DNA of 64,000 nt, taken from contig JAXHVD010000005.1 in NCBI GenBank assembly GCA_034189385.1, positions 64,001 through 128,000 on the forward strand. Direction: 5' to 3'. Every line of letters starts with the position of its first letter. Position 1 is the stretch's first letter. This document shows positions 11,345 to 40,457 of this stretch, in pieces. Under the pieces are notes generated by a model. It did not search any database. It was given only the letters and a program-made list of their open reading frames with translations, and was not told the DNA's origin. A program made the translations under genes and the position numbers. This DNA is from Thermodesulfobacteriota bacterium. GTDB lineage: Bacteria; Desulfobacterota; Desulfobacteria; Desulfobacterales; C00003060.

Positions 11345-12394
11345 CTATCTCAGAATACCTGCAAAACGATCAGCAATTTCCTTCATGTTTTTTAGATAAT
11401 CTCTGGCCAACGGATCAATATGCACCACCTTGCCTCCAATGGCACGGGCCACGGTTTCAGCACTGGTTTTGCTGAACTGCTTCTGCACGAATATGATGCC
11501 GATGCCCTCTTCCTTCGCCTCTTCAATGATACGAATGAGATCTTTGGCCGTTGGCTCCTTGCCTTCGATTTCGATGGGAATTTGCTCCAGCCCGTAGTCA
11601 CGGGCAAAGTACCCCCATGCTGGATGAAAAACCATGAATTTACCGGTCTTTGCCTTTTTCAGGGACTGTGCGATTTTCCTGTCTAGCTCGTCAAGATCGC
11701 GCTCAAGGGCTTTGAGATTCTCCAGGTAATAAGTCCTGTGAGCAGGATCTTCCGCTGCCAGGGCTTCAAAGACGGTCTGGGCCTGTATCTTGACCAGTCT
11801 AAGACTTAACCAGATATGGGGGTCTTTCAGGCCTTCGCCGCGATGACGGTGGGCAGACCCACGTTCTCCATGGCCGTTGTGTCGGTGGTGTTCATCCTGG
11901 TCCTTTTCTTGATGACGACCTTGGAGCCCATGTCTTTCTTCATGATGATGGGCTTTCATGGGCAGAAGCTCGATGCCGTGACGGGTGTCAACAACCTTCA
12001 TGTTCGGGTTGATCTTGCTTATCCGTTCCATCCAGACTTTTTCAAAATCCACGCCAATGCGAAAGTAAAGCTTGGCCTGGCTGAGCTCGTACATCTGTTT
12101 TGGCCCGGGTTCGTACGTGTGAGGGCTGTGACCGGGCCCAACCATGACCGAGACGTCTACAAGGTCTCCGCCCACGCGGTCTAAGAAATAGGCTTGGGGG
12201 AGAATGCTGACGAAAACCTTCATCTCCGGTTCTAGAGGACCCGATATTTCCGCAGACGATTGGGATCCAATTGGAAGGAGCAATCCGGCGAACACCAGGA
12301 TAAGGCCAACGATGCACACAGAATGCCTTCTCCTTGTTTCTCGTTGCCTCCCTGCCAAGGATATCCGTTTCATGTGTGTCACTTGTCTTTGCAT
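11345..12394 (-). CDS. znuA: Zn/Mn ABC transporter substrate-binding protein with His-rich loop
   Basis: SPHTYEP, DPHIWLS, HPAWGYFA, His-rich insert. Confidence 0.85.
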   Translation of the reverse strand: MQRQVTHMKRISLAGRQRETRRRHSVCIVGLILVFAGLLLPIGSQSSAEISGPLEPEMKVFVSILPQAYFLDRVGGDLVDVSVMVGPGHSPHTYEPGPKQMYELSQAKLYFRIGVDFEKVWMERISKINPNMKVVDTRHGIELLPMKAHHHEERHGLQGRHQEKDQDEHHRHNGHGERGSAHRHRGEGLKDPHIWLSLRLVKIQAQTVFEALAAEDPAHRTYYLENLKALERDLDELDRKIAQSLKKAKTGKFMVFHPAWGYFARDYGLEQIPIEIEGKEPTAKDLIRIIEEAKEEGIGIIFVQKQFSKTSAETVARAIGGKVVHIDPLARDYLKNMKEIADRFAGILR

Positions 12395-12463
12395 GGGAAT
12401 AAGGTGTGGAAAGGGGCCATTGGCCCCAGATGGAAGCCCCGTAGTGTTGTCAAAGTGGCTGGT

Positions 12464-14653
12464 TCATGCCAATCCAATGATCTTGCCGCCTTGATAGATC
12501 AAAAAGGCAACGACCCAGGCCAGAACGGTGCTGTAACCGATGCTGAAGAAGGTCCACTTCCAGGAATTCGTTTCCCGTCTGATGACTGCCACAGTGGCGA
12601 GGCAGGGGACATAGATGAGCACAAAGGCCATCATGGCATAGGCGGAAAGGGCCGTCATCCCAGATTTCTTAAGGGCTCCTTTCAAGGCCTCATTTCTCTC
12701 GGTCCCATCAGCCCCGACGGCATAGAGAACGCCCATGGTGCTTACCACAATCTCCTTGGCAACAAAACCGGAGATGACTGCCACACTGCCACGCCAGTCC
12801 ATGCCAATAGGAGCAAAGATCGGGGCCAAGGCTTTTCCTAGATAGCCCATGTAGGATTTTTCCACCTTCTCTCTGGCCTTCTGCGCTTCCACGGCGGAGA
12901 TGGCTTTATCCCGTTGCCGCATGAGTGCTTCACCGCTATTCCCCTGCAATTGGAGGATCTGAGTCTCATACTTGGCATGGACGGTTGCTATCTCCGATTC
13001 GTAGTCCCTTGAGTACTCAATGTCCTGTGGAAAGGCACTCAAGAACCACACAACAACCGACCCGATTAGGATCACGCCTCCCATTTTCTTTAGAAAAATC
13101 TTGCTGCGATCCCACATATGGATAAGCAGTCCTTTAAACATGGGGGCCCGATACGGTGGAAGTTCCATGACAAAGGGAGCCACTTTACCTCTGAGTACGG
13201 TGGATCGAAACAGACGCCCCACAAGAATCGCCAGCACGATGCCCAAGGCGTAGATGGAAAAAATAGCGTTGCCGGCCTTGACTCCAAAAAAAGTACCGGC
13301 CAGAAGGATATACACGGGTAATCTAGCAGAACACGACATCAGGGGATTGATTAGAATCGTCAATATACGATCCTTTTCGCTTTCCAAGGTCCTGGTGGCC
13401 ATGATGGCTGGGGCATTGCAGCCGAAACCCATGAGCAAGGGGATGAAGGACTTGCCATGGAGCCCGATGAGGTGCATGACCTTGTCCATTAAGAAGGCAG
13501 CCCGAGCCATATAGCCGGTATCCTCAAACAGGGCAATGCAGAAGAAAAGGATCAGGATGTTCGGCAAGAATATGATGACACTTCCCACGCCGGCAATGAT
13601 GCCGTCTACGATCAGATCGTGCAGGAGGCCCTGTGGCAGACGCCCTCCGATGGCTCCGCCCAGCCAGCCCACGCCTGAATCTATCCAGCCCATGGGATAG
13701 GTCCCCAGTGAGAAGGTGATCTGGAACATGGCCCAAATGAAGAAGACAAAGATAGGAAGCCCCAGCAGTCGGTTGGTCAAGATCTGGTCTACTTGCCGGG
13801 AAATGTCTATACGTCTTCCCGATACTGTCTTTAAGGCCTCTTTCACAATACCGGCGATAAAACCGTACCGGTGGTCTGTCATGACAATCTCGGGTTCCTC
13901 ATCAAAGAATTGGCGGAGCCTCTCCCGTTTCTGCTCCGCCTCACAGAGGATAGCCTCTCCTTCTGGGCTGGCCGCCTGAAGGGTCCTTTCTTGAACGATC
14001 TTGTCCTTTTCAAGGAGCTTCACGGCAATCCAGCGAACACTGTGAGGAAGCCTTTTACCCATTTTGTCCTTTATGAATGTGGACAATTCCCCAATGGTCT
14101 TTTCAATGTCTTTGCCGTAATAAACACGGCGGGTGCGAGGAAGCTCTATATCCGTTTCTGCCACGGCGATGATGGCCTTGAGGAGTTGATCTGTGCCTTC
14201 GTTCTTGTTGCCGACCGTGAACACCACCGGCACGTCAAGCAGTTCAGACAGCTTCTCGCCGTCGATCTTGATACCGCGCTGGCGGGCCACATCGGCCATG
14301 TTCAGGACATAGATGACCTTCGTGTCAAGTTCCCGAAGCTGTGTGGCCAGGTAGAGATTGCGCTCCAAGTTCGAGGCGTCAATGATATCAACGACTACGT
14401 CAGGTTTTTCATCCAGGATGAAATCGCGAGCCACGATTTCTTCGATAGAATAGGCGGTAAGGCTGTATGTGCCAGGGAGATCGACAATGGTGAGTTCATA
14501 CCCGTTGGTGCTAAGATGGCCTTCTTTTTTTTCTACAGTGACGCCAGGCCAGTTTCCTACCTTCTGGCGGGTACCTGTGAGATTATTAAATATCGTGCTC
14601 TTGCCCGAGTTGGGATTGCCGGCAAGGGCTACTGTAATGGAGTGGGGGGCCAT
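12464..14653 (-). CDS. feoB: Ferrous iron transport protein B
   Basis: GNPNSGKS, GNWPGVTVE, DLPGTYSL, GFGCN, CSARLP, YVPCLAT. Confidence 0.97.
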   Translation of the reverse strand: MAPHSITVALAGNPNSGKSTIFNNLTGTRQKVGNWPGVTVEKKEGHLSTNGYELTIVDLPGTYSLTAYSIEEIVARDFILDEKPDVVVDIIDASNLERNLYLATQLRELDTKVIYVLNMADVARQRGIKIDGEKLSELLDVPVVFTVGNKNEGTDQLLKAIIAVAETDIELPRTRRVYYGKDIEKTIGELSTFIKDKMGKRLPHSVRWIAVKLLEKDKIVQERTLQAASPEGEAILCEAEQKRERLRQFFDEEPEIVMTDHRYGFIAGIVKEALKTVSGRRIDISRQVDQILTNRLLGLPIFVFFIWAMFQITFSLGTYPMGWIDSGVGWLGGAIGGRLPQGLLHDLIVDGIIAGVGSVIIFLPNILILFFCIALFEDTGYMARAAFLMDKVMHLIGLHGKSFIPLLMGFGCNAPAIMATRTLESEKDRILTILINPLMSCSARLPVYILLAGTFFGVKAGNAIFSIYALGIVLAILVGRLFRSTVLRGKVAPFVMELPPYRAPMFKGLLIHMWDRSKIFLKKMGGVILIGSVVVWFLSAFPQDIEYSRDYESEIATVHAKYETQILQLQGNSGEALMRQRDKAISAVEAQKAREKVEKSYMGYLGKALAPIFAPIGMDWRGSVAVISGFVAKEIVVSTMGVLYAVGADGTERNEALKGALKKSGMTALSAYAMMAFVLIYVPCLATVAVIRRETNSWKWTFFSIGYSTVLAWVVAFLIYQGGKIIGLA

Positions 14654-14656
14654 CTG

Positions 14657-14896
14657 TTATGTTGCTCCAAGCCTTACGTTTTCGACTTGAACCCAGGCGG
14701 CTTCATCCACGCGAAGAGACACATGGTAGCCTTTCAGGATGAGTTCAATAGGGTCTTTCAAGGGGGCGTATTTTTCAACATACACCTCTGTGCCGCGCAA
14801 AAACCCCATCTCAAGGAGTCGCCTACGAAAAGAACCTTTACCCGACACCCGAACGACTGTGGCTACCTGACCTTCCTGCAGTTCACTCAGGTTCAC
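14657..14896 (-). CDS. feoA: Ferrous iron transport protein A
   Basis: RRLLEMGF, APLKDPI; directly upstream of feoB. Confidence 0.92.
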   Translation of the reverse strand: MNLSELQEGQVATVVRVSGKGSFRRRLLEMGFLRGTEVYVEKYAPLKDPIELILKGYHVSLRVDEAAWVQVENVRLGAT

Positions 14897-15588
14897 GGCA
14901 AGTCCCTTCGGTCTCCATTTGGTTTGACCATGATCTTTCTGGCAATCCCTCGGCCCAAGGCCAACCTCGTGGCATTTACTGCCACCACCACTTGTCCCTC
15001 ACCCCTGTTGGTGATGACTTCCACTTCATCTCCGCTTCGCAGCCCCATGGTAGCCAAGCGCAGTTGTGCGCCAGCACCTCCCATGAACTCTTCTATGATG
15101 CCCCGCTCCCCTTCTTGGGCATACGATAGCGGCATCAATTGGACGCGTTCTTTCACACAGTCTGCGCAAAGCCCGTAGATCTCCATCTTGTGCTGGAGCA
15201 TGTGAAAGCCATGGGTAGCCGCTATTTCCACTTGCAGGTGTTCCATCTGCTGATTTTTGAACTCAACAATCTTCCGGCACTTCGTACATATGAGGTGATC
15301 GTGGTGTAACCCAAGGTGACGATGCTCGTAACGGGTGGGCTGACCTTCGAATTTTTCCTTTGAGGCAAACCCATACCGGCACATCAGGTTGAGTGTCTTC
15401 TTTACGAAGTCAGGCTCAAAATGAAGGCCTTTTCTTTCTAACAGGTCCATGAGATCTTTGAAGCTTACATGTGCCTCTTGTCCAAGAAAGACGCCGAGGA
15501 TGGCCATTCGATCCTGAATTTGGTCTATTCCTTCCCTTTCAAAAAGACGTTTGAATTGTCGCTTTTCCTGCTGATGAATCGGGTCCAT
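14893..15588 (-). CDS. Fur family regulator fused to a C-terminal FeoA domain
   Basis: HHDHLICTKC...GLCADC Fur motifs followed by FeoA-like RLATMGL...RLALGRGIA. Confidence 0.88.
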   Translation of the reverse strand: MDPIHQQEKRQFKRLFEREGIDQIQDRMAILGVFLGQEAHVSFKDLMDLLERKGLHFEPDFVKKTLNLMCRYGFASKEKFEGQPTRYEHRHLGLHHDHLICTKCRKIVEFKNQQMEHLQVEIAATHGFHMLQHKMEIYGLCADCVKERVQLMPLSYAQEGERGIIEEFMGGAGAQLRLATMGLRSGDEVEVITNRGEGQVVVAVNATRLALGRGIARKIMVKPNGDRRDLP

Positions 15589-17508: not shown

Positions 17509-18912
17509 TCATTGTGGTGGGCATGGCATGGAGTTGTTCACAGGCGAAGGGATCCTACTTGCAGGAACCATAACCTTGGCATTCGCCCTTTGTTCCCAGT
17601 CAGTGACATCTTCTTTCTGGAGAAAAAGCGCAGTGTTGCCGTGACAATTGTTGCAGTTTTTGTTTTGTGGCGTCACCCGTTGAAGCGTGTGAGGTGTGTC
17701 CAGTTTCCAGGTAGGAAGTCTGTCAAAATCGCTTAGCCCGTCCTTTACATAGAAATCAAAGAGGCCCGGATGTGCAGGGGCATGACGCAACACTACATAG
17801 TTATAGGGCCTGTCTTCACTCTTGCCAGGATTGATGCCTATCTTAAAGAGCATCGTGGTTTCCCTAGATTGGTAGTAGGGAAGGCCTTGTTTGTCTGTTC
17901 CAACGTGGCACTGGAAGCAGTTTTTGTAGGGCCTGCCGTGGCAGACTTGGCATGCCACCTTGTCCCTGTGAATCCTGTGTGACGCTGTGCTAGGGTTTTC
18001 CGATACAGCGTCCCAGTGGCAGTTTTCGCATCGGGGCCTCTCGGGCAGATCAAGTCGACTGGAAACCCCCATGGCATCAGCATGCATCTCCATGCCGGTG
18101 TGGCAGTCCATACACGTCATGTTCACTTTGGCATAATGGACGTCTGCTGGATACCCCTCGTTTCCCCCAGTATACTCCTTATAAGTGCGGCCGCTGTGGC
18201 AGCCCGCACAGCCAGAGTCCATTGGTGGGCTCTTCTGAAAAACATGTCCGGCCAGGAACCCCCCCTCCGCGTAATCTGGACGGCTGACATGACACTGCCC
18301 GCAGCTTGCGTGACAGACACTGCAGTGCTTATCTCTGGCCGACCAGACTTTGTCCATGATTCCCTGGTCCTTCTTGTTGGTCCGGGCCCTGATCGTCCTG
18401 CTGAAGGGAGCCAGCGTGTAGTGAAGGCTATTCTTGGCTGTGGACGTGATACCCTGGTGACATGCTCCGCAAGCCTTGTCGGCATCGGGAAAGGTGGGAT
18501 CTCTCACAAGCCCCTCGTGGGCGGCCTGCCAATTGGATGCCAGTGGGTTGCCTTGATGGCATGTCTGGCAAGGTATTTTCCCATGGCGGGTCTTGAGGAA
18601 TGACCGGTCAACATAGGTCCTCTCGTGCGGCTCGGACCAAGCCACAGGCTCGGCTCAACATTCGCCAGTGGATTCTGGTGACGGGCCAGGCTTTGGCCTT
18701 ACCTTTTCCATCTCCCTGGCCAAGGTGACTTGCCTTTCGGCATTGGTGTGGCAACTGACGCATTCACTCTGCGCCAAGTCCTGGTTAGCCACAGAACGCG
18801 GTGACACGCCACACGCCGGCAGGGCAAAAGATAAGACTAGAAGTCCAATGGAGATAAAAAATGCTCCCAGCCTATTTGTCCTGTTCCATTTCAGAGAGTC
18901 TATCTCGAGCAT
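17509..18912 (-). CDS. 11-heme c-type cytochrome lipoprotein, probable selenoprotein (Sec at TGA 18655-18657); start codon uncertain
   Basis: ORFs 18655..19014 and 17509..18645 are in frame across one TGA; lipobox LPAC; 1+10 CXXCH motifs; hairpin 3' of the TGA. Confidence 0.8.
18627..18654 (-). promoter_or_regulatory. Candidate bacterial SECIS element
   Basis: Minus strand after TGA reads GCCGAGCCT GTGGCTTG GTC CGAGCCGC: 8-bp stem (2 G-U pairs) with a G-containing loop ~17 nt from the UGA. Confidence 0.6.
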
Positions 18913-19093
18913 TTCTCGCATATTCGCTGTCGGGGTAATTAGCCACAATTTCCTGGTACAACTTCTTGGCGTGCTCTTCGTTGTGTTGCAACTCTTCCAG
19001 CCGTGCGGTATCAAAAAGCTCTTCAGCCTTATTGCCCGTGCAGCCAGAAAGGGCTAGGGCAGCCCAAAGAAAGAGGAAAGAATATCGTTTCAT
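18872..19093 (-). CDS. Small lipoprotein with a single TPR-like unit
   Basis: Lipobox LSGC; AKKLYQEIVANYPDSEYA; AGGAGG RBS. Confidence 0.75.
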   Translation of the reverse strand: MKRYSFLFLWAALALSGCTGNKAEELFDTARLEELQHNEEHAKKLYQEIVANYPDSEYARNARDRLSEMEQDK

Positions 19094-21044: not shown

Positions 21045-22292
21045 TTAATGGTCACACACGTTTTCTCCGGTAACCAATGCGTTTGAGAGATATTGCTGTA
21101 CCAGTTCCTCAGGTACAAGATTAGGCGCCCCTGTCATCACCTTAATGTCGTTTTCTCCAAAAAGGCTGAGGGCCCTCTGTCCCATGCCTCCCGCAATAAT
21201 CACGCTCACACCCTGTTCGTGGAGCCACTTGGGCAGCACGCCCGGCTCATGGGGTGGGGGGGTCAACATCTCTTTCTTCGTTATTTCCTGGTTTTCCACA
21301 TGAACAATGGCAAAATCTGCCGCATGGCCAAAATGGGCCGTGAGTTTACCTTCAGCGACAGGGATTGCGATTTTCATAACGCCATCCTCCTTCTTTCCTT
21401 TTTCCGTCTGTGATGTCTTGGGAGCAGGTTTAGAAGCAACGGCTCCTGTCTGGTTGTTTTCTATTATTCTTTCAACCACTTCATTGAACGCTTGCGTTGT
21501 CTCAGAGTCCGGATATTTTCCCATGTACGATTCCCCTGCATCACCGCACTGTACCAGCTTGGGATCAAAGGGGATCCGACCCAAAAAGGGCACATTCATG
21601 GCCAGAGCCGTTTTAAAACCGCCACCTGTTCCGAAGAGCTCCACCGATTGGCCACAATGGGGGCACAAGAATCCGCTCATATTTTCTATTAGTCCCAGGA
21701 TGGGCATCTTAACGGTCCTGCAAAAACTGATCGATTTCCTGATGTCGGCCAGAGAAATCTCCTGGGGAGTGGTGACGATAATGGCCTTGGCACCAGGGAT
21801 GGTTTGAGCGATAGAGAGCGGTTCATCCCCTGTGCCAGGCGGCGAGTCGATAATGAGATAATCGAGTCTTTCCCAATGCACGTCAGAGATGAATTGCCGG
21901 ATAACATGCATCTTCAAGGGACCCCTCCAGATCACGGCTTCGTCCTGATCTTGGGCAAGGGACTCAATGGAGACTACTTTGAGATTGTCGGAGTATGCCT
22001 TTGGTACCATTCGGTTATCGGCGCTGATGCCAAGAAGGCCCTTGAGCCCCAGCATTCTCGGTATGTCAGGGCCATGGAGATCAACGTCCATGAGCCCTAC
22101 CTTGGCCCCCTTTTTTGACAGAGCCACAGCCAGGTTGGCAGAGACACTGCTTTTGCCCACACCACCTTTTCCGCTCATGACCAGAAACTTATGCTTGATA
22201 AGACTGAGCGATTCTTGGATGGCCAGGTCTTGTGGGTCCGTCCCTCCACCCTGCTTGGATGGCCCTTGGCCAGATTTCTTAACTTCACTCAT
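21045..22292 (-). CDS. Mrp/NBP35 Fe-S carrier ATPase fused to a NifB/NifX-type domain (MrpORP-like)
   Basis: GKGGVGKSS, DSPPGTGDE, ENMSGFLCPHC; C-terminal KIAIP...HFGH...GGMG...NVCDH. Confidence 0.9.
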   Translation of the reverse strand: MSEVKKSGQGPSKQGGGTDPQDLAIQESLSLIKHKFLVMSGKGGVGKSSVSANLAVALSKKGAKVGLMDVDLHGPDIPRMLGLKGLLGISADNRMVPKAYSDNLKVVSIESLAQDQDEAVIWRGPLKMHVIRQFISDVHWERLDYLIIDSPPGTGDEPLSIAQTIPGAKAIIVTTPQEISLADIRKSISFCRTVKMPILGLIENMSGFLCPHCGQSVELFGTGGGFKTALAMNVPFLGRIPFDPKLVQCGDAGESYMGKYPDSETTQAFNEVVERIIENNQTGAVASKPAPKTSQTEKGKKEDGVMKIAIPVAEGKLTAHFGHAADFAIVHVENQEITKKEMLTPPPHEPGVLPKWLHEQGVSVIIAGGMGQRALSLFGENDIKVMTGAPNLVPEELVQQYLSNALVTGENVCDH

Positions 22293-22405
22293 CGAGAAAC
22301 CTCCTGTATTTGCTATTTTAGAATGTGGATGCCCAGTGTAGCAGGAACTATAAGCATTCAAACCCTTGGTGGCAACCCCTAACCCTTCACACCTGGGCCT
22401 ACTGA

Positions 22406-22768
22406 CTAGACCCAGTGCCCTTCTACATTGGGCCCGTCCACCTGCTCTAACCGGCCGTTTTTGTACTGCATGACGGCATCTATCACGCGTCCTTTGGCAC
22501 CCGTCACCACCTTGATGTCTGCAGCATTCAAGACATCAAAGGCCTTGGGCCCGCAATTGCCGGAGATCAATACACTCACCTTGTTATCTACAATAGTTTT
22601 GGCCGCTTGGATGCCCGCCCCTTGCGGCAAATTCAGATTTTGTACATTCTCCACGGCTTCATATTCCAGTGTCTTGGGGTTTACGACAACAAAATATGTG
22701 GCCCTCCCAAAACGGGGATCCATTTCGGAAATAAGCTCGTTCCCAGTAGAACTGACAGCAATTCTCAT
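22406..22768 (-). CDS. NifB/NifX family Mo-Fe cluster-binding (orange protein-like) protein
   Basis: DPRFGRA, GAGIQAA, GNCGPKA. Confidence 0.88.
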   Translation of the reverse strand: MRIAVSSTGNELISEMDPRFGRATYFVVVNPKTLEYEAVENVQNLNLPQGAGIQAAKTIVDNKVSVLISGNCGPKAFDVLNAADIKVVTGAKGRVIDAVMQYKNGRLEQVDGPNVEGHWV

Positions 22769-22793
22769 TCTTGGTTCTGCCTCCTCTTTTTCA

Positions 22794-23084
22794 CTAATTC
22801 CCGGCTTGTTTTAGCACCTCCATAAGCTGATCAGCCCTGTTGTATCCTGCCACCTTGATCTCCACCTCCTCAACGCCCTCTGTTTTTTCCACAGCCTTCT
22901 GAATGTTGTGGGCCAGTTCAAAGGCCATGGGACAGACTGGAGACGAGGGGTGAAAGGTAAAGCTGACTTTGCCGTGCTGGTCGACAGAGAGTCCTCTGAC
23001 CAGTCTCATGCGCATGATGTCAAGTTTGGTGCCTGGGTCAATCACTTCTCTTAAAGTATCTTCAACTTTTTTCTTTAGTGTCAT
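22794..23084 (-). CDS. DUF59 / metal-sulfur cluster assembly protein
   Basis: LREVIDP, SPVCPMA. Confidence 0.8.
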   Translation of the reverse strand: MTLKKKVEDTLREVIDPGTKLDIMRMRLVRGLSVDQHGKVSFTFHPSSPVCPMAFELAHNIQKAVEKTEGVEEVEIKVAGYNRADQLMEVLKQAGN

Positions 23085-24016
23085 CGGTAATCCCTGAGTT
23101 GATAGTAGACCTCAGCGTCCTTGTTGACCACCTTGATCTTATCGTCCTTAACCAACAGGTCCATGTATTTTATGACCTCGTTCTTATGCACAGCCAACCC
23201 AGAAGAGATGTCATCCAAGGTGCACGGCCGTCTTGCAAGGAGGTTCAACAAGTCTTGTTCAATGTTGGTCTTGGGTTCGTGCTTGTGGCCGTCTTCAAAT
23301 GGTGCAATCACTTCTGCCTTCTCGCCTAGAATCTTGCAGAACCTCGCCATCTCCTCTTGGGAAACCTTCTGCGCATGAGGTTCTGCTGAAGGGCGGACAG
23401 CGGTGTTCACGTGTACCTTCTGCGGATCCACCCTTTCGATCCATTGCCTAAAGCGTGTGGCGTCGGTTTCCGTGGCATTTACATTTTTGAGGATGAAGAC
23501 CTCAAGCCATATCTCCCCGCTGTATACCTTCCGGAAGTCAACGAGTCCATCGACCATGGCCCTAAAGCTGATCTCGGGATGGGGGCGATTGATTACCTCA
23601 AACCCCCTTTGGTCATATGCGTCTAAAGACGGCAGCACGACGTCAGCCTCCATGATAGATTCTTGAACCCTGCCGTCTCCCAAAAGGGAACCGTTGGTTA
23701 ACACCGCTACCGGAATGTCAGTGTGTTTCTTAATGTCATGAATCAGTGGGCCGATATCACTATTCAATGTGGGTTCCCCAGATCCTGCCAGGGAGATGTA
23801 GTCTGCGTCCAGACCCTCTTCCATGGTTTCATAGAACTGATCCAGGATCTTTCTTACCGGTATATAAGGCTTTCTTTCAATGGTCTTGGTCTTGGTTCGC
23901 CCAAGTTGGCAATAGATACAGTCATAGGAACAGACCTTATATGGAACCAGATCAAGGCCTAAAGAGCGTCCCAACCTCCGTGAGGGCACAGGCCCGTAAA
24001 GAAAGCGTTGCTTCAT
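23081..24016 (-). CDS. Radical SAM protein (ORP-cluster associated)
   Basis: YGPVPSRRLGRSLG, CSYDCIYC, GSGEPTL. Confidence 0.88.
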   Translation of the reverse strand: MKQRFLYGPVPSRRLGRSLGLDLVPYKVCSYDCIYCQLGRTKTKTIERKPYIPVRKILDQFYETMEEGLDADYISLAGSGEPTLNSDIGPLIHDIKKHTDIPVAVLTNGSLLGDGRVQESIMEADVVLPSLDAYDQRGFEVINRPHPEISFRAMVDGLVDFRKVYSGEIWLEVFILKNVNATETDATRFRQWIERVDPQKVHVNTAVRPSAEPHAQKVSQEEMARFCKILGEKAEVIAPFEDGHKHEPKTNIEQDLLNLLARRPCTLDDISSGLAVHKNEVIKYMDLLVKDDKIKVVNKDAEVYYQLRDYR

Positions 24017-24879
24017 TGTCTTCCCAGGCAGTCATCAACCCGATGCCAGATATCTTTTATGGCCTCAGACACCTTGCCCTTTGAGAACTCGACAACACTC
24101 TGTCCAGCCACCATGGCACGGGTGACCTCGGTGTCGTAGGGGATATGCCCCACCAATTCAATGCCGTTCTTTCCACAATAATCTGCAACCCGCGCAGACA
24201 TCTCCTCATTGAGGTCGAATTTGTTGATACAGGCCAGGGTAGGTATCTTGAAGTGGGCAGCCAGCCCGCCAACCCGTTCAAGGTCGTGAAGTCCTGACAG
24301 GGTGGGTTCGGTCACTATAAGGACCAAACTTGTGCCGGTTATGGAGGCAATGACGGGACATCCAATCCCCGGGGGGCCGTCCACAATAACGGTATCTAGC
24401 CCCCTGTCCTCGGCTAGGACTTTGGCCTGATTTCTAACGAGGCTTACCAGCAACCCAGAGTTCTCCTCTGCGATACCCAGGCGGGCATGGACCATGGGGC
24501 CAAACCTGCTTTCAGAGACGTACCACTTACCGCAAACACTCTGGGGAAAGTCAATGGCCTCCACTGGGCAGAAATGGACACACACCCCGCATCCCTCGCA
24601 ATCGATCTTATTGACTACAAACTCTGGACTAATGGCATTGAACTGACATCGATTCAGGCACTCCCCGCATTCCGTGCACCTATCAGGGTCAATGACGGCG
24701 ATTCGCCCCCCCTTGAAATCTTCCTCATGCCTGATCTCCGGGGCAAGAATCAAGTGAAGATCGGCCGCGTCCACATCGGCATCGGCCATGACCTTTTCTT
24801 TAGCAAGGGCCGCGAAAGAGGCTACCACACTGGTCTTACCAGTGCCGCCTTTGCCACTTATGATCGTTATTTCTTTCAT
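24013..24879 (-). CDS. MinD-like P-loop ATPase with 2x[4Fe-4S] ferredoxin insert
   Basis: SGKGGTGKT, CTECGEC, CEGCGVC, DGPPGIGCP. Confidence 0.9.
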   Translation of the reverse strand: MKEITIISGKGGTGKTSVVASFAALAKEKVMADADVDAADLHLILAPEIRHEEDFKGGRIAVIDPDRCTECGECLNRCQFNAISPEFVVNKIDCEGCGVCVHFCPVEAIDFPQSVCGKWYVSESRFGPMVHARLGIAEENSGLLVSLVRNQAKVLAEDRGLDTVIVDGPPGIGCPVIASITGTSLVLIVTEPTLSGLHDLERVGGLAAHFKIPTLACINKFDLNEEMSARVADYCGKNGIELVGHIPYDTEVTRAMVAGQSVVEFSKGKVSEAIKDIWHRVDDCLGRQ

Positions 24880-25712
24880 GCAGTCAGTTCCCCTATTTTC
24901 TCATAAACCGCTCGAAACTGATCCTTCATCTCAGGCCTGACGTCTATCATCATGATGCCACGGGAATAGGCCTCAGCGATCTTTCGGTCATTTGGGATCT
25001 CCATCAAGATGGGGATTCCCTCTTTTTTAGCATATGCCACAACGCGATCGTCTCCTACGTCAGATCGGTTGATAACGATCCCGAGGGGGATTTCCAGAAT
25101 CCTTACAGCCCCCACGGCCAACTTGAGGTCATGTAGTCCAAAGGGAGTGGGTTCGGTCACCAAGAGGGCGAAGTCCGAGCCTTTGAGTGTGACAATGACG
25201 GGGCACGATGTCCCTGGTGGCGCATCGATAATGGTCGTCTTTTTCGGATCAATGTATTCCTTAACCTCTTCAATGAGAGGGGGAGACATGGCCTCGCCAA
25301 TCCGTAAACGGCCATGGATGAATTCAACGGAGCCGCAGTGGCCCTTTTCCAGGACCCCAAGTTCACGGGGCTTCTCTCCTATGGCCTCTCTCGGACAGAC
25401 CATCATGCACCCTTTACAGCTGTGACAAAGCTCCGGGAAAGTCAGCACCTTCTTGCCAATGACGGCAATGGCACTAAACTGACAGATCTCTCCGCACATT
25501 CCGCAGTAATCGCACTTTTCCAAATCAACTTCCGGCACCGGTGTCGTCACCGTCCCCGTATAGTCGATGTCAGGTTTGGTAAAGATGTGGGCGTTTGGTT
25601 CTTCCACATCACAGTCCAAGAGCTGAACCCCTCCATCCAATGAAAAAGCCAGGTTGGTAGCGATAGTCGTCTTCCCCGTGCCCCCTTTGCCGCTGGCAAT
25701 AGAAATAATCAT
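24876..25712 (-). CDS. MinD-like P-loop ATPase with 2x[4Fe-4S] ferredoxin insert (paralog)
   Basis: SGKGGTGKT, CDYCGMC, CHSCKGC, DAPPGTSCP. Confidence 0.9.
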   Translation of the reverse strand: MIISIASGKGGTGKTTIATNLAFSLDGGVQLLDCDVEEPNAHIFTKPDIDYTGTVTTPVPEVDLEKCDYCGMCGEICQFSAIAVIGKKVLTFPELCHSCKGCMMVCPREAIGEKPRELGVLEKGHCGSVEFIHGRLRIGEAMSPPLIEEVKEYIDPKKTTIIDAPPGTSCPVIVTLKGSDFALLVTEPTPFGLHDLKLAVGAVRILEIPLGIVINRSDVGDDRVVAYAKKEGIPILMEIPNDRKIAEAYSRGIMMIDVRPEMKDQFRAVYEKIGELTA

Positions 25713-25797
25713 GCCTCTCAGATTCTCCTCAATCTATAATGATGGCCCGTTGCCGTCAGTGTATGGGTGTCGCCGGCATGGCCTGCCCCTCATTTGG

Positions 25798-26025
25798 CTA
25801 CCCTCGTGTCATGGCCGCCCCACACTTGGGGCATTTTTCTTCAAAGCAGGGCGTTCCCTGTCGGTGGGGAACCCTTTGGCCACAACTGGGGCAAACACAG
25901 TCTCCACCGGGACCTCTGCCAGAACCCGCACCCTGACCTGAGCCTCCGCCGCCTTGCCCCATGCGCCTTCCTGTGCCGGGGCCTTCGCCCCTCGGGCCAG
26001 TTCCGTCTCCTCGTGGCATTGTCAT
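25798..26025 (-). CDS. Small Gly-rich protein with C-terminal zinc ribbon (DUF5320-like N-terminus)
   Basis: MPRGDGTGP...CVCPSCG...CPKCG; AGGAGG RBS. Confidence 0.75.
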   Translation of the reverse strand: MTMPRGDGTGPRGEGPGTGRRMGQGGGGSGQGAGSGRGPGGDCVCPSCGQRVPHRQGTPCFEEKCPKCGAAMTRG

Positions 26026-26050
26026 CTCCTCCTAATTTCAGTTCTAACCT

Positions 26051-26110
26051 TGATGGTTTCGAAAAAAGTCTTTTTCAAATCATTGAGTCCGCGGGGGCGG
26101 ATGAGAAAAG
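26051..26110. mobile_element. Truncated copy of the MITE-like element at 28721-28942
   Basis: tgatggtttcgaaaaaagtc (18/20 to that element's terminal repeat) followed by a shared cattgag.ccgc..ggcgga stretch. Confidence 0.6.
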
Positions 26111-26113
26111 CAC

Positions 26114-26539
26114 TTACTCCTGGGCCCGTATTCGGTGGAGTTCTTCGCATCCACAGGAAGGGCATTTCTGGGGCCGGCCCGTGCCACGAGGTTCTTTCCA
26201 CTGACTTTTGCAGTGGTCGCAAAGGAAAAGCCGATTTTCTGCCGGGTCTACCCTTTTGTAATTTCCCCCTTCTACATTGATAGCCTTTCCGTAAATGAGT
26301 GCTCCTGCAATGGTTTTGCGCGCCTGTTCGACAATGCGCCCAAATGTGGCTCTTGATACCCCCATCTGCTTGCCTGCTTCTTCATGAGACAACCCCAGAA
26401 GATCAGCGAGCCTTAGCGCCTCAAGCTCATCCACGGTGAGTTGGACCTGTTCCAAGTCGATCATGGGAACTCCCCGCGGTTTGAAGTAGTTTATCTGCGG
26501 GTCAATATTTACAAGTCGGTCTTTTTGCGGACGTACCAT
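26114..26539 (-). CDS. DUF134 domain putative DNA-binding protein with C-terminal zinc ribbon
   Basis: FKPRG, ELEALRLAD, MGVSRATF, EGG; CDHC/CPSC. Confidence 0.88.
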   Translation of the reverse strand: MVRPQKDRLVNIDPQINYFKPRGVPMIDLEQVQLTVDELEALRLADLLGLSHEEAGKQMGVSRATFGRIVEQARKTIAGALIYGKAINVEGGNYKRVDPAENRLFLCDHCKSQWKEPRGTGRPQKCPSCGCEELHRIRAQE

Positions 26540-37971: not shown

Positions 37972-39294
37972 ATGGTTGAGTTCAAACACAAAACTCCCAT
38001 GATTGATCAGCTGGAAACTGGGCCTTGGACGAGCTTTGTCTCAGACATCAAGCGCGAACACGAGTCCAGGATGAACAACGAAAAAGGGATCGATTACCAG
38101 TTTGACCAGGATTGTTGCGATGACCTCTTGGGTGTATTGGAGTTATCCTATGAGCACGGCAGGACCCACTGGAAGCACGGCGGCATCGTGGGCGTGTTCG
38201 GATATGGCGGCGGCGTCATCGGCCGGTATTGCGACCAGCCTGAGATGTTTCCAAGTGTGGCCCACTTTCATACCATGCGTGTGAATCAACCCATGGGGCA
38301 CTACTACACCACGGAGTACTTGGAGCAGCTCATGGACCTGTGGGAAAGACGCGGCAGCGGTATTACCAATATGCACGGTTCCACAGGGGACATCATCTTT
38401 CTCGGGACAAGCACGCCCCAGTTGGAAGAGGTCTTCTATGAATTGACCCACAACATCAACCAGGACCTGGGTGGTTCAGGGTCGAACCTGCGGACCCCCT
38501 CTGACTGCATGGGTCAGTCCATGTGCGAGTGGGCCTGCTACGACACGCAGGAGATCTGTTATCAGCTTACCATGGAGTATCAGGACGAGCTGCACAGGCC
38601 GGCCTTCCCATACAAGTTCAAGTTCAAGTTTGACGGATGCCCCAACTGCTGCGTGGCTTCCATTGCCCGATCTGACCTCTCCTTTATCGGCACCTGGCGC
38701 GATGAGATCCGTATCGACCAGGAGGCGGTCAAGGCCTATGTAGGCGGTGATTTAGTGCCTGGCGGCGGTGACCATGCGGGTCGCGATTGGGGCGCCTTTG
38801 ACATCGAAAAAGAGGTGATCGATATTTGTCCCACTCAGTGTATGCGATGGGACGGCAGCAAGCTTGAGATCAATAACCCTGAGTGCACCCGGTGCATGCA
38901 CTGCCTCAGCGTCATGCCCAGGGCCCTTCGAATAGGAAATGATAGGGGCTGTTCCATCTTGGCCGGCGCCAAGGCCCCCATCCTGGATGGGGCCCAGATG
39001 GCTACACTGATTGTACCGTTTATCAAGGTTGAACCGCCCTATGATGAGATCAAGGAGACAGTCGTCGAGCCCATCTGGGATTGGTGGATGGAAGAGGGCA
39101 AGAACCGCGAGCGCCTTGGTGAGTTGATTAAACGGCAAGGGATGCAGAAGCTTTGCGAGGTCACCGGTTTCAAGGCCATCCCCCAGATGGTCCAGGAGCC
39201 TCGATCCAATCCGTACGTCTTCTGGAAAGAGGAAGAAGTACCTGGCGGATGGAAGCGCGATATTAACGAATTCAGGAAGTATCATCAGAGATAG
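37972..39294 (+). CDS. dsrA: Dissimilatory sulfite reductase alpha subunit
   Basis: [50 protein letters not shown]. Confidence 0.99.
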
Positions 39295-39305
39295 GGGGTG
39301 AAACC

Positions 39306-40457
39306 ATGGCGTTTATTTCTTCAGGATACAATCCCGACAAACCGATGGAAAACAGGATTACCGATATCGGACCGCGATATTACGAGGAATTCTATCCACC
39401 AATCATCAAGAAAAACAAAGGCAAATGGCTCTATCACGAAATCCTAGAGCCGGGCATTGTGGTGCATGTGGCTGAAAGCGGAGACGAACTCTATACGATC
39501 CGCTGTGGCGGCTGTCGCTTGATGACTGTGTCGCACATCCGTGAAATCATGGAGATTGCCGATAAGTACTGCGACGGCTATGTCCGGTGGACGACGCGGA
39601 ATAACGTGGAGTTCATGGTGGATAGCAAGGACAAGGCCATGGCCTTGAGAGACGACGTAATGGCCCGGAAACAGCCTGGCGGGTGTTACAAATTTCCCGT
39701 TGGTGGCACGGGCGCTGGCATTACCAATATCGTCCACACCCAGGGCTGGATTCACTGCCACACACCGGCCACGGATGCCTCTGGAACGGTCAAGGCCACG
39801 ATGGACGAGGTCTTTGACGATTTCACCAGCATGAGGCTTCCGGCCAAGCTCAGGATTTCCATGGCCTGCTGCCTGAACATGTGCGGCGCAGTTCACTGTT
39901 CCGATATTGCGATTCTGGGTTACCACCGCAAGCCGCCCATGATTGATGTGGAGTACATTGACAAGATGTGCGAGATTCCCCTGGCCGTTGCAGCCTGCCC
40001 CACGGCAGCCATCAAGCCGGCCAAGGTGGAAGTCGATGGCAAAAAGCTCAACAGCGTAAAGGTGAACGAAGAGCGGTGCATGTTCTGCGGCAACTGCTAC
40101 ACCATGTGCCCGTCCATGCCGTTGGCTGACACAGAGGGAGATGGTATCGTTCTGATGGCAGGCGGCAAGATATCAAACAGGGTAGACGCACCGAAGTTTT
40201 CCAAGGTTGTCGTCGCCTTCATCCCCAACGAACCGCCTCGCTGGCCCACGATGACCAAAACTATCAAGAAGATGGTTGAGGTGTACTCCGCCGACGCAAA
40301 CAAGTACGAGCGCTTTGGCCAATGGGCTGAGAGGATCGGCTGGGAGAGATTCTTTGAGAAGACCGGTCTGGAATTTACCCATCATCTCATCGACGATTTC
40401 CGTGATCCGGCCTATTACACCTGGCGTCAGACCACGAACTTCAAGTTTACCAAGTAG
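39306..40457 (+). CDS. dsrB: Dissimilatory sulfite reductase beta subunit
   Basis: [49 protein letters not shown]. Confidence 0.99.

Follow-up and report, generated by a model that had tools for sequence, protein, structure and literature searches.

Several described systems resemble parts of the locus reported here. MccSep (ExtKL, GSU2937-2936 of Geobacter sulfurreducens; NF040886; PDB 9wt8) is an exported multiheme c-type cytochrome with one UGA-encoded selenocysteine (Sec, U) and an associated hairpin. It is common in Desulfobacterota, has Cys-type homologues and is split in two by gene callers. Its five hemes all lie before the Sec, it has an Ig-like domain, and a distant residue, Cys239, serves as a heme ligand. 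The octaheme tetrathionate reductase (OTR) of Shewanella oneidensis (PDB 1sp3; TIGR04315) is promiscuous (PMC13510729), and its catalytic heme II carries a Lys ligand, Lys56 (PMC3769277, PMC4484225). In Wolinella succinogenes, Sud is a periplasmic polysulfide-binding carrier that presents the substrate to a reductase (PMC2628731). The reductase of the Sud system, PsrABC, is a molybdopterin enzyme. A vicinal Cys-Sec centre is found in mammalian thioredoxin reductase, from which the selenenylsulfide chemistry of such pairs is known. In SaoL, SaoC, HgcA and MbdU, families that are defined by the C-U pair, Cys and Sec also stand side by side, preceded by a flexible stretch that contains Gly. No cytochrome stands among the C-U rows of Table 1 of PMC13188914, in the part of that review covered here, and a literature search on vicinal selenenylsulfide chemistry found no paper.

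The stretch of DNA analysed here (64,000 nt, referred to as the window) carries a gene for an 11-heme protein that shares with MccSep all of the general features given above, from export and the single, predicted UGA-encoded Sec to the splitting by gene callers. In the window protein, however, the Sec lies between hemes 1 and 2, and its family has no conserved free Cys besides the Sec column. An earlier note on this DNA, made from the letters alone, had cited a Geobacter multiheme selenoprotein as precedent. MccSep holds up as an analogue, and as a polysulfide reductase (PMC13510729) it appears to be the best functional one, but it is not a close relative: NF040886 matched neither the window protein nor nine full-length homologues at E<=0.01, and the family profile reached E=0.021 against 9wt8. 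MccSep, a helical cap plus an Ig-like stem, was not among the fold-search matches, which does not show that the folds differ. With OTR the window protein is predicted to share a distantly matching heme core, to which it adds three hemes and an N-terminal Sec loop. The exported rhodanese of the family would resemble Sud as a carrier serving a reductase; here the acceptor would be a heme/Sec protein in place of a molybdopterin enzyme and, unlike the Sud/PsrABC system, the window gene has no carrier gene beside it. The C-U pair, which is like that of thioredoxin reductase, is attached to a heme chain instead of a flavin, and is a minority state that occurs internally within the 11-heme family.

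The split frame and its internal TGA

The window gene is one 467-codon frame that is interrupted by a single TGA, at residue 86, and terminates at a second TGA (Table 1). The residues around the internal TGA read E-S-T-G-E-C-U-A-E-P-V. Eleven CXXCH motifs are encoded, one before the TGA and ten after it, and the downstream ORF of translation table 11 (17509-18645, 378 aa) has no signal peptide at its start; both observations had been made in the earlier note and were confirmed on the sequence. The lipoprotein signal that it assigned to the upstream ORF, along with the one CXXCH, is only probable, as the L-P-A-C box misses the strict standard lipobox pattern, while every clade member seen retains the Cys itself, and in one relative, 91% identical, the box reads L-L-A-C. 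There are 25 frames with at least four heme motifs in the genome, and the window gene is the only one with a TGA among its motifs. It overlaps the upstream gene for a 73-aa TPR-like lipoprotein by 41 bases, and the two are probably co-transcribed. Promoter and terminator scans gave results near chance. Read-through of the final TGA was also considered, and was rejected because the fold behind it is weak (-6.6 kcal/mol over 40 bases) and the terminal stops of family genes vary (TAA 70, TAG 44, TGA 43).

Table 1. Features of the selenocytochrome locus, in window coordinates
Feature	Position	Strand	Basis or comparison
Whole gene, 467 aa if TGA 18657-18655 is read as Sec	17509..18912	minus	sequence
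Alternative start of the gene, in-frame ATG	18921		
Signal peptide (residues 1-33) and Cys34, probable lipid attachment site, clade-specific	18811..18912	minus	sequence
Heme motif 1 (C51-H55), the sole motif before the TGA	18748..18762	minus	invariant in 143/143 aligned homologues
Sec loop region, residues 70-101	18610..18705	minus	longest invariant run among three full-length clade members
Cys85 (TGT); Gly in most of the family	18658..18660	minus	locus and fragment comparison
In-frame TGA, predicted Sec86	18655..18657	minus	sequence, homologous loci
SECIS-type hairpin, +9 to +29; loop 18637-18635, G at +18	18626..18646	minus	folding, covariation
Heme motifs 2-11 (C115-H424)	17641..18570	minus	sequence, alignment
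Stretch aligning with OTR 1sp3, residues 107-461	17530..18594	minus	predicted model
Heme motif 4 (C197-H201), inferred counterpart of OTR catalytic heme II	18310..18324	minus	motif order
Upstream gene, 73-aa TPR-like lipoprotein	18872..19093	minus	same arrangement in L041, L042

The homologous loci collected at >=200 bits numbered 213 (178 distinct), including 80 metagenome loci, the best 80 of 569. A TGA is present in the loop between hemes 1 and 2 in 168 of the 178 distinct loci. The remaining ten comprise three with Cys, two whose TGA is at a contig edge, four that start downstream and one that is out of frame at this point. In whole-genome searches, one TGA was found in 55 of the 58 order-level matches and in 46 of the 47 from the phylum. 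Cys homologues, which the earlier note had named together with TGA as the expected states, do exist: the Sec column of 31 TGA-free homologues holds Cys 15 times, Trp four times and Tyr three times, and Cys also occurs in the DNA of loci L029, L151 and L152. The loci examined show neither TAA nor TAG at this column. Trp or another non-Cys residue, and TAA or TAG, had been listed as evidence against Sec; the former do occur, and the Trp and Tyr forms are read as losses or miscalls. One Trp form, P0098, has tree neighbours (L096, L120) with TGA. These three, together with P0097, are of a Syntrophales type with a C-terminal extension that carries more heme motifs and a hydrophobic tail. Two apparently broken copies were also encountered: L040 (G045 C35) is out of frame at the Sec loop, and L177 (G683 C27) has an extra in-frame TAA.

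The hairpin with a G-containing loop, described by the earlier note as lying 3' of the TGA, is present from +9 to +29, with a 9-pair stem and a 3-base loop (-15.3 kcal/mol in the window gene). G occupies +18 in 113 of the 114 distinct junctions, and in 158 of 168 loci of a wider set. In the 103 junctions with a loop beginning at +18, pair +16:+22 is never broken, and +15:+23 occurs as T-A (52) or G-C (51). The loop-closing pair is G-C in the window clade as against C-G in most homologues, a swap that cost amino-acid changes. The codons across the loop are also strongly biased, Pro being CCG in 100 of 101 cases and Leu TTG in 98 of 98, compared with 33% and 16%, respectively, in the rest of the same genes. 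In 36 chosen sequences, the kin among which are not independent of one another, 90% of stem cells are paired and 27 show two-sided change, while none of 500 shuffles reached the pairing or covariation score and slid controls paired at 34-47%. Because of the near-invariant loop G and the two-sided covariation, the hairpin goes beyond chance.

The genome encodes selA, selB, selD and selC (tRNA-Sec), all above curated cut-offs, and the machinery for which the earlier note had proposed a check is complete; selD itself contains a TGA. Co-occurrence with selA (57 of 61 genomes) was rejected as evidence for Sec, as Cys-form genomes have selA too and the comparison does not discriminate. The proposal that gene callers split one protein of about 467 aa is borne out in the databases, where 118 of the best 120 protein matches cover no more than 80% of the query, starting after the TGA or being shorter. 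At least 120 separate N-terminal fragments (120 listed of 127 in the protein collection) end directly before the TGA, an end point that is inferred, and some of them overlap the DNA locus set. A homologue search limited to residues 45-125 returned one protein.

With the TGA in a conserved loop and followed by a covarying hairpin, the two ORFs are very likely one exported 11-heme selenocytochrome, and TGA 18657-18655 is very likely read as Sec. That the TGA is a real stop, so that the gene would be a pseudogene or encode two proteins, is highly improbable, as is its reading as Trp. The four Trp forms among the 31 TGA-free proteins would fit such a reading, as would the four of 57 TGA-form genomes in which selA was not found, but the latter are drafts of 82-97% completeness. 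A real stop would also leave ten heme motifs without an export signal, would not explain the covariation and fixed spacing of the hairpin, and sits poorly with the existence of full-length Cys homologues; as to Trp, the 43 family genes that end in TGA indicate that it is a working stop in these genomes.

Fold and heme ligands

A structure model was built from 149 sequences, with Cys in place of Sec and without hemes (pLDDT 94.8, pTM 0.91). The top match in both fold searches was OTR (1sp3), with E 1.3e-4 and TM 0.28 by Foldseek, and with Z 9.2 and rmsd 5.0 over 276 aligned residues in the other, where the next match had Z 4.4. Residues 107-461 are therefore predicted, on a distant match, to fold like OTR; the TM-score is only 0.28, and a shared fold is no proof of function. 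The TIGR04315 model scores 18-32 bits against a cut-off of 375. A profile aligns OTR residues 4-47 with the stretch H132-heme 3-H164 of the window protein (second sequence match, E 2.5e-10), and by motif order heme 4 would be the counterpart of OTR heme II. No invariant Lys was seen in the alignment between hemes 3 and 4 of the family, and an invariant Arg, Arg177, lies there. Together with Arg242, Arg286, Arg376 and Glu246, which are likewise nearly invariant in the Sec forms, Arg177 may line an anion site.

Nine non-motif His residues are invariant, and two more are conserved at about 92% (H196 in 104 of 112 sequences, H377 in 103 of 112), for which reason a free catalytic heme site is not established. 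The same count bears on the role of Sec86, which might act as an axial ligand (His/Sec) that tunes or gates one heme, and not as a free nucleophile. There are 11 hemes for nine invariant His, and sulfur-converting multiheme enzymes with His/Cys-ligated hemes exist (PMC13510729), but H196 and H377 could take the two remaining sites. Furthermore, the residue is replaced or dropped in some homologues that keep all hemes, and the Gly-rich loop, in which the family motif is G-x-G-U-G/A, resembles a mobile arm and has the lowest internal confidence of the model (block means 84-88). A ligand role for Sec86 is accordingly considered rather unlikely, and a nucleophilic Sec is preferred.

The rhodanese partner and the residue before Sec

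Using a profile built from 81 neighbouring rhodaneses, a rhodanese gene was found adjacent to the cytochrome gene in 129 of the 178 distinct loci, fused to it in 13 and near it in 2; it was not found in 10, and 24 loci were too short to tell. Thus 144 of 154 informative loci have a partner. Several types are represented, some single and others tandem; those sampled are Pfam rhodaneses that have an active-site Cys and an N-terminus resembling a signal peptide. In L215 (G800 C24) the fused rhodanese domains stand before heme 1 and not behind it, and next to this locus lies another tandem rhodanese ORF, whose end reads C-G-G followed by TGA. The commonest other neighbour is a PAS sigma-54 activator (33 of 126 loci), often with a NifX-like gene; it is not found beside the window gene. 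Formate dehydrogenase-type genes stand beside 12 of 126 loci.

No rhodanese neighbour was found at the window gene; of the ten loci that lack such a neighbour, eight are this gene and its genus-level relatives. The closest relative with a partner is G010, in which a search detected that partner but did not find it in any of nine window-group genomes (65-96% complete). Four other rhodanese domains occur in the window genome, two of them with a TGA, and a partner for the window protein may be encoded elsewhere in that genome. The two TGA-containing genes, at G000 C1:36071-36436 (-) and C23:169535-169861 (+), have the codon in a C-A-U-P motif, and the first has a signal-like N-terminus. This first gene encodes an exported NF041203 protein; it was rejected as a clade-wide substitute, as NF041203 is over its cut-off in only one of 37 genus genomes, that of the window, where alone it may serve as the partner.

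The window clade also differs from its sister clades in position and history. It is at another locus, behind the small TPR-like lipoprotein gene, has acquired a new signal peptide with a conserved Cys at its end, and its stem branch is 0.34, compared with 0.02-0.10 for the sister stems. Purifying selection is nevertheless evident in the clade (dN/dS 0.16-0.17), with values of 0.33-0.55 before the TGA, on about 26 synonymous sites, versus 0.15 after it. The three full-length members are 83-84% identical, and the 32-residue run around the Sec is the longest invariant one in the protein; within it, 10 of 32 codons differ, all 10 synonymously and none by replacement.

Vicinal Cys-Sec had been put forward as a possible catalytic redox site of the protein, but it is not the catalytic motif of the family. 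Of 168 loci, 163 encode Gly directly before the Sec and 5 encode Cys, which makes Cys-Sec a clade-level variant, conserved in the window clade, and means that Sec alone must suffice in most members. The last residue of the 120 N-terminal fragments is Gly in 109 and Cys in 11, never Ala or Ser, and Cys is the only alternative to Gly seen at this position. A single origin of C-U was rejected on full-length sequences (p 0.0025), with a group that was named after a quick tree had been viewed; on 75-column fragments it was not rejected (p 0.067), the fewest changes being four. From these comparisons, Cys before Sec appears to have arisen at least twice. A second thiol near the Sec site seems to recur in other forms as well: among the Cys-form proteins, two have G-E-C-C-G-G and two C-x-x-C at this site. 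The post-TGA fragment of P0004, a relative of the clade, starts A-W-C-E-P, with a further Cys in the hairpin-coding stretch.

The partner is missing in all three informative C-U loci, but in only 7 of the 142 informative loci of the G-U type. This association of partner loss with Cys-Sec is suggestive only, because both well-supported origins of C-U lie inside one partner-less clade, and the seven partner-less Gly-Sec loci indicate that Cys85 is not required once the partner has gone. That Cys85 functionally replaces the rhodanese is, on present evidence, doubtful. The family may also be just as described with the window copy an orphan left by loss of its partner, in which Cys85 is tolerated and has no role. 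The long stem branch, the new genomic position and the new signal peptide would be expected of such a copy, a single base change turns Gly to Cys, and Gly is kept in seven of the ten partner-less loci. Low dN/dS, the invariant Sec loop with its purely synonymous differences, the restriction of fragment ends to Gly and Cys, and the repeated origin of Cys all speak against it, and we regard an idle Cys85 as fairly improbable.

Proposed reaction, distribution and neighbouring genes

A reaction can be outlined that starts from the frame, the 11 heme motifs, the conserved TGA, the hairpin and the Sec machinery as observed. SelB would very likely mediate read-through of the TGA, after which the chain would be exported, probably lipid-anchored, and its hemes attached outside the cytoplasm. 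In front of the OTR-like part, as modelled, there would be two additional hemes that flank the Sec loop. In most members, to judge from gene context, the exported rhodanese would supply sulfane sulfur; Sec would attack the S-S bond and electrons from the heme chain would release sulfide, in a manner comparable to MccSep and Sud/Psr. The weakest step concerns the window clade, which in the absence of a rhodanese might use free polysulfide or a carrier encoded elsewhere. Here Cys85 might resolve the Sec-S adduct to give a Cys-Sec selenenylsulfide that is then reduced by the hemes. The suggestion that the pair is a redox site for sulfur or selenium species fails for the family and survives as a possible resolving role in this clade.

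Taking together the partner, the fold, the formate dehydrogenase-type neighbours and the analogy to MccSep and Sud/Psr, there is about an even chance that the window protein is an exported, periplasm-facing sulfane-sulfur reductase, acting on polysulfide or a persulfide with Sec as the nucleophile. The main clue to the substrate is the rhodanese link, yet this is missing in the window genome, which counts against the reading. The fuller scheme, of an undescribed 11-heme selenoenzyme family in which, after loss of the rhodanese, a Cys beside Sec (at least two origins) produced a self-resolving Cys-Sec selenenylsulfide served by a periplasmic heme wire instead of a flavin, is put forward tentatively, as an unlikely possibility.

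Rhodanese coupling is silent on direction, and TsdA-type heme enzymes are reversible (PMC5146829), so the protein might instead oxidize sulfide or polysulfide, or take part in sulfur disproportionation, with the rhodanese being loaded and electrons passing to the periplasmic heme pool. Since both the closest fold (OTR) and the closest functional analogue (MccSep) are reductases, and the formate dehydrogenase-type neighbours suggest an electron source, the oxidative direction appears unlikely. Still less likely is a role in detoxification or selenium supply in which selenite, tellurite or a soft metal(loid) would be reduced or bound. MccSep reduces selenite as well, and C-U motifs occur in the metal-handling SaoL, HgcA and MbdU (PMC13188914, Table 1), but the partner of the family is a sulfurtransferase bearing a Cys loop, and a look at the 45 most frequent neighbour clusters (15 representatives annotated) showed no recurring metal-resistance genes. 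Reduction of sulfane sulfur is the reading preferred here.

The family was found by whole-genome searches in 14 of 37 genus genomes, 52 of 401 order genomes and 45 of 401 phylum genomes, i.e. in about 11-13% of the sampled genomes of the host's order and phylum. None of the NCBIfam models scores above its cut-off on the window protein or on nine full-length homologues, and the GSU2204 model does not match the window protein. In the part of the 119-family table of PMC13188914 covered here, the three heme-bearing entries are ExtKL, GSU2204 and an annotated OTR-family octaheme protein; the annotated Sec form of TIGR04315 in that review is WP_331457571.1. Cytochrome or heme terms gave no match in the accessible main text of deep-Sep (PMC12013277), BSepDB (PMC13326102), PMC1976440 or PMC8318568, and the accessible part of PMC1914089 names only GSU2937-2936. 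A literature search found no paper on an 11-heme selenocytochrome, and members may be included in the supplementary lists of deep-Sep, BSepDB or the MccSep study. The window protein is very likely a genuine hidden selenoprotein of an apparently undescribed family, the OTR-family Sec entry WP_331457571.1 being known by its description only. As far as the compared sequences go, what is new is the recurrent Cys beside Sec and the loss of the rhodanese partner in the window clade.

Because databases hold the family as two hypothetical proteins, neither selenoprotein inventories nor reconstructions of the sulfur cycle include it. If the proposed function is true, MccSep would be joined by a second heme-plus-Sec route to S-S bond chemistry, one that was built separately. 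The natural series of Gly-Sec, Cys-Sec, Gly-Cys and Cys-Cys forms, with and without rhodanese, makes the contribution of a vicinal Cys to Sec catalysis on a heme chain testable.

A related family with 8-9 hemes, which has neither the N-terminal hemes nor the Sec loop, is represented in the window genome by G000 C7:93858-94487 (+) and elsewhere by L018, L019, L020, L023 and L031-L033, and includes loci of Archaeoglobaceae and Gemmatimonadales. The host has dsrA, which with a paralogous match, probably dsrB, lies at G000 C45:102002-104439 (about 38000-40400 in the window), some 19 kb from the cytochrome gene. A metal-uptake run (11345-15588, minus strand) encodes a Fur-FeoA fusion, FeoB and a His-rich ZnuA-type binding protein. 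On the other side of the cytochrome gene, a cluster at 21045-26539 (minus strand) carries DUF134, radical SAM, DUF59-type and NifB/NifX-like proteins, an Mrp-NifX fusion, and two ferredoxin-containing P-loop ATPases that were named from sequence only.
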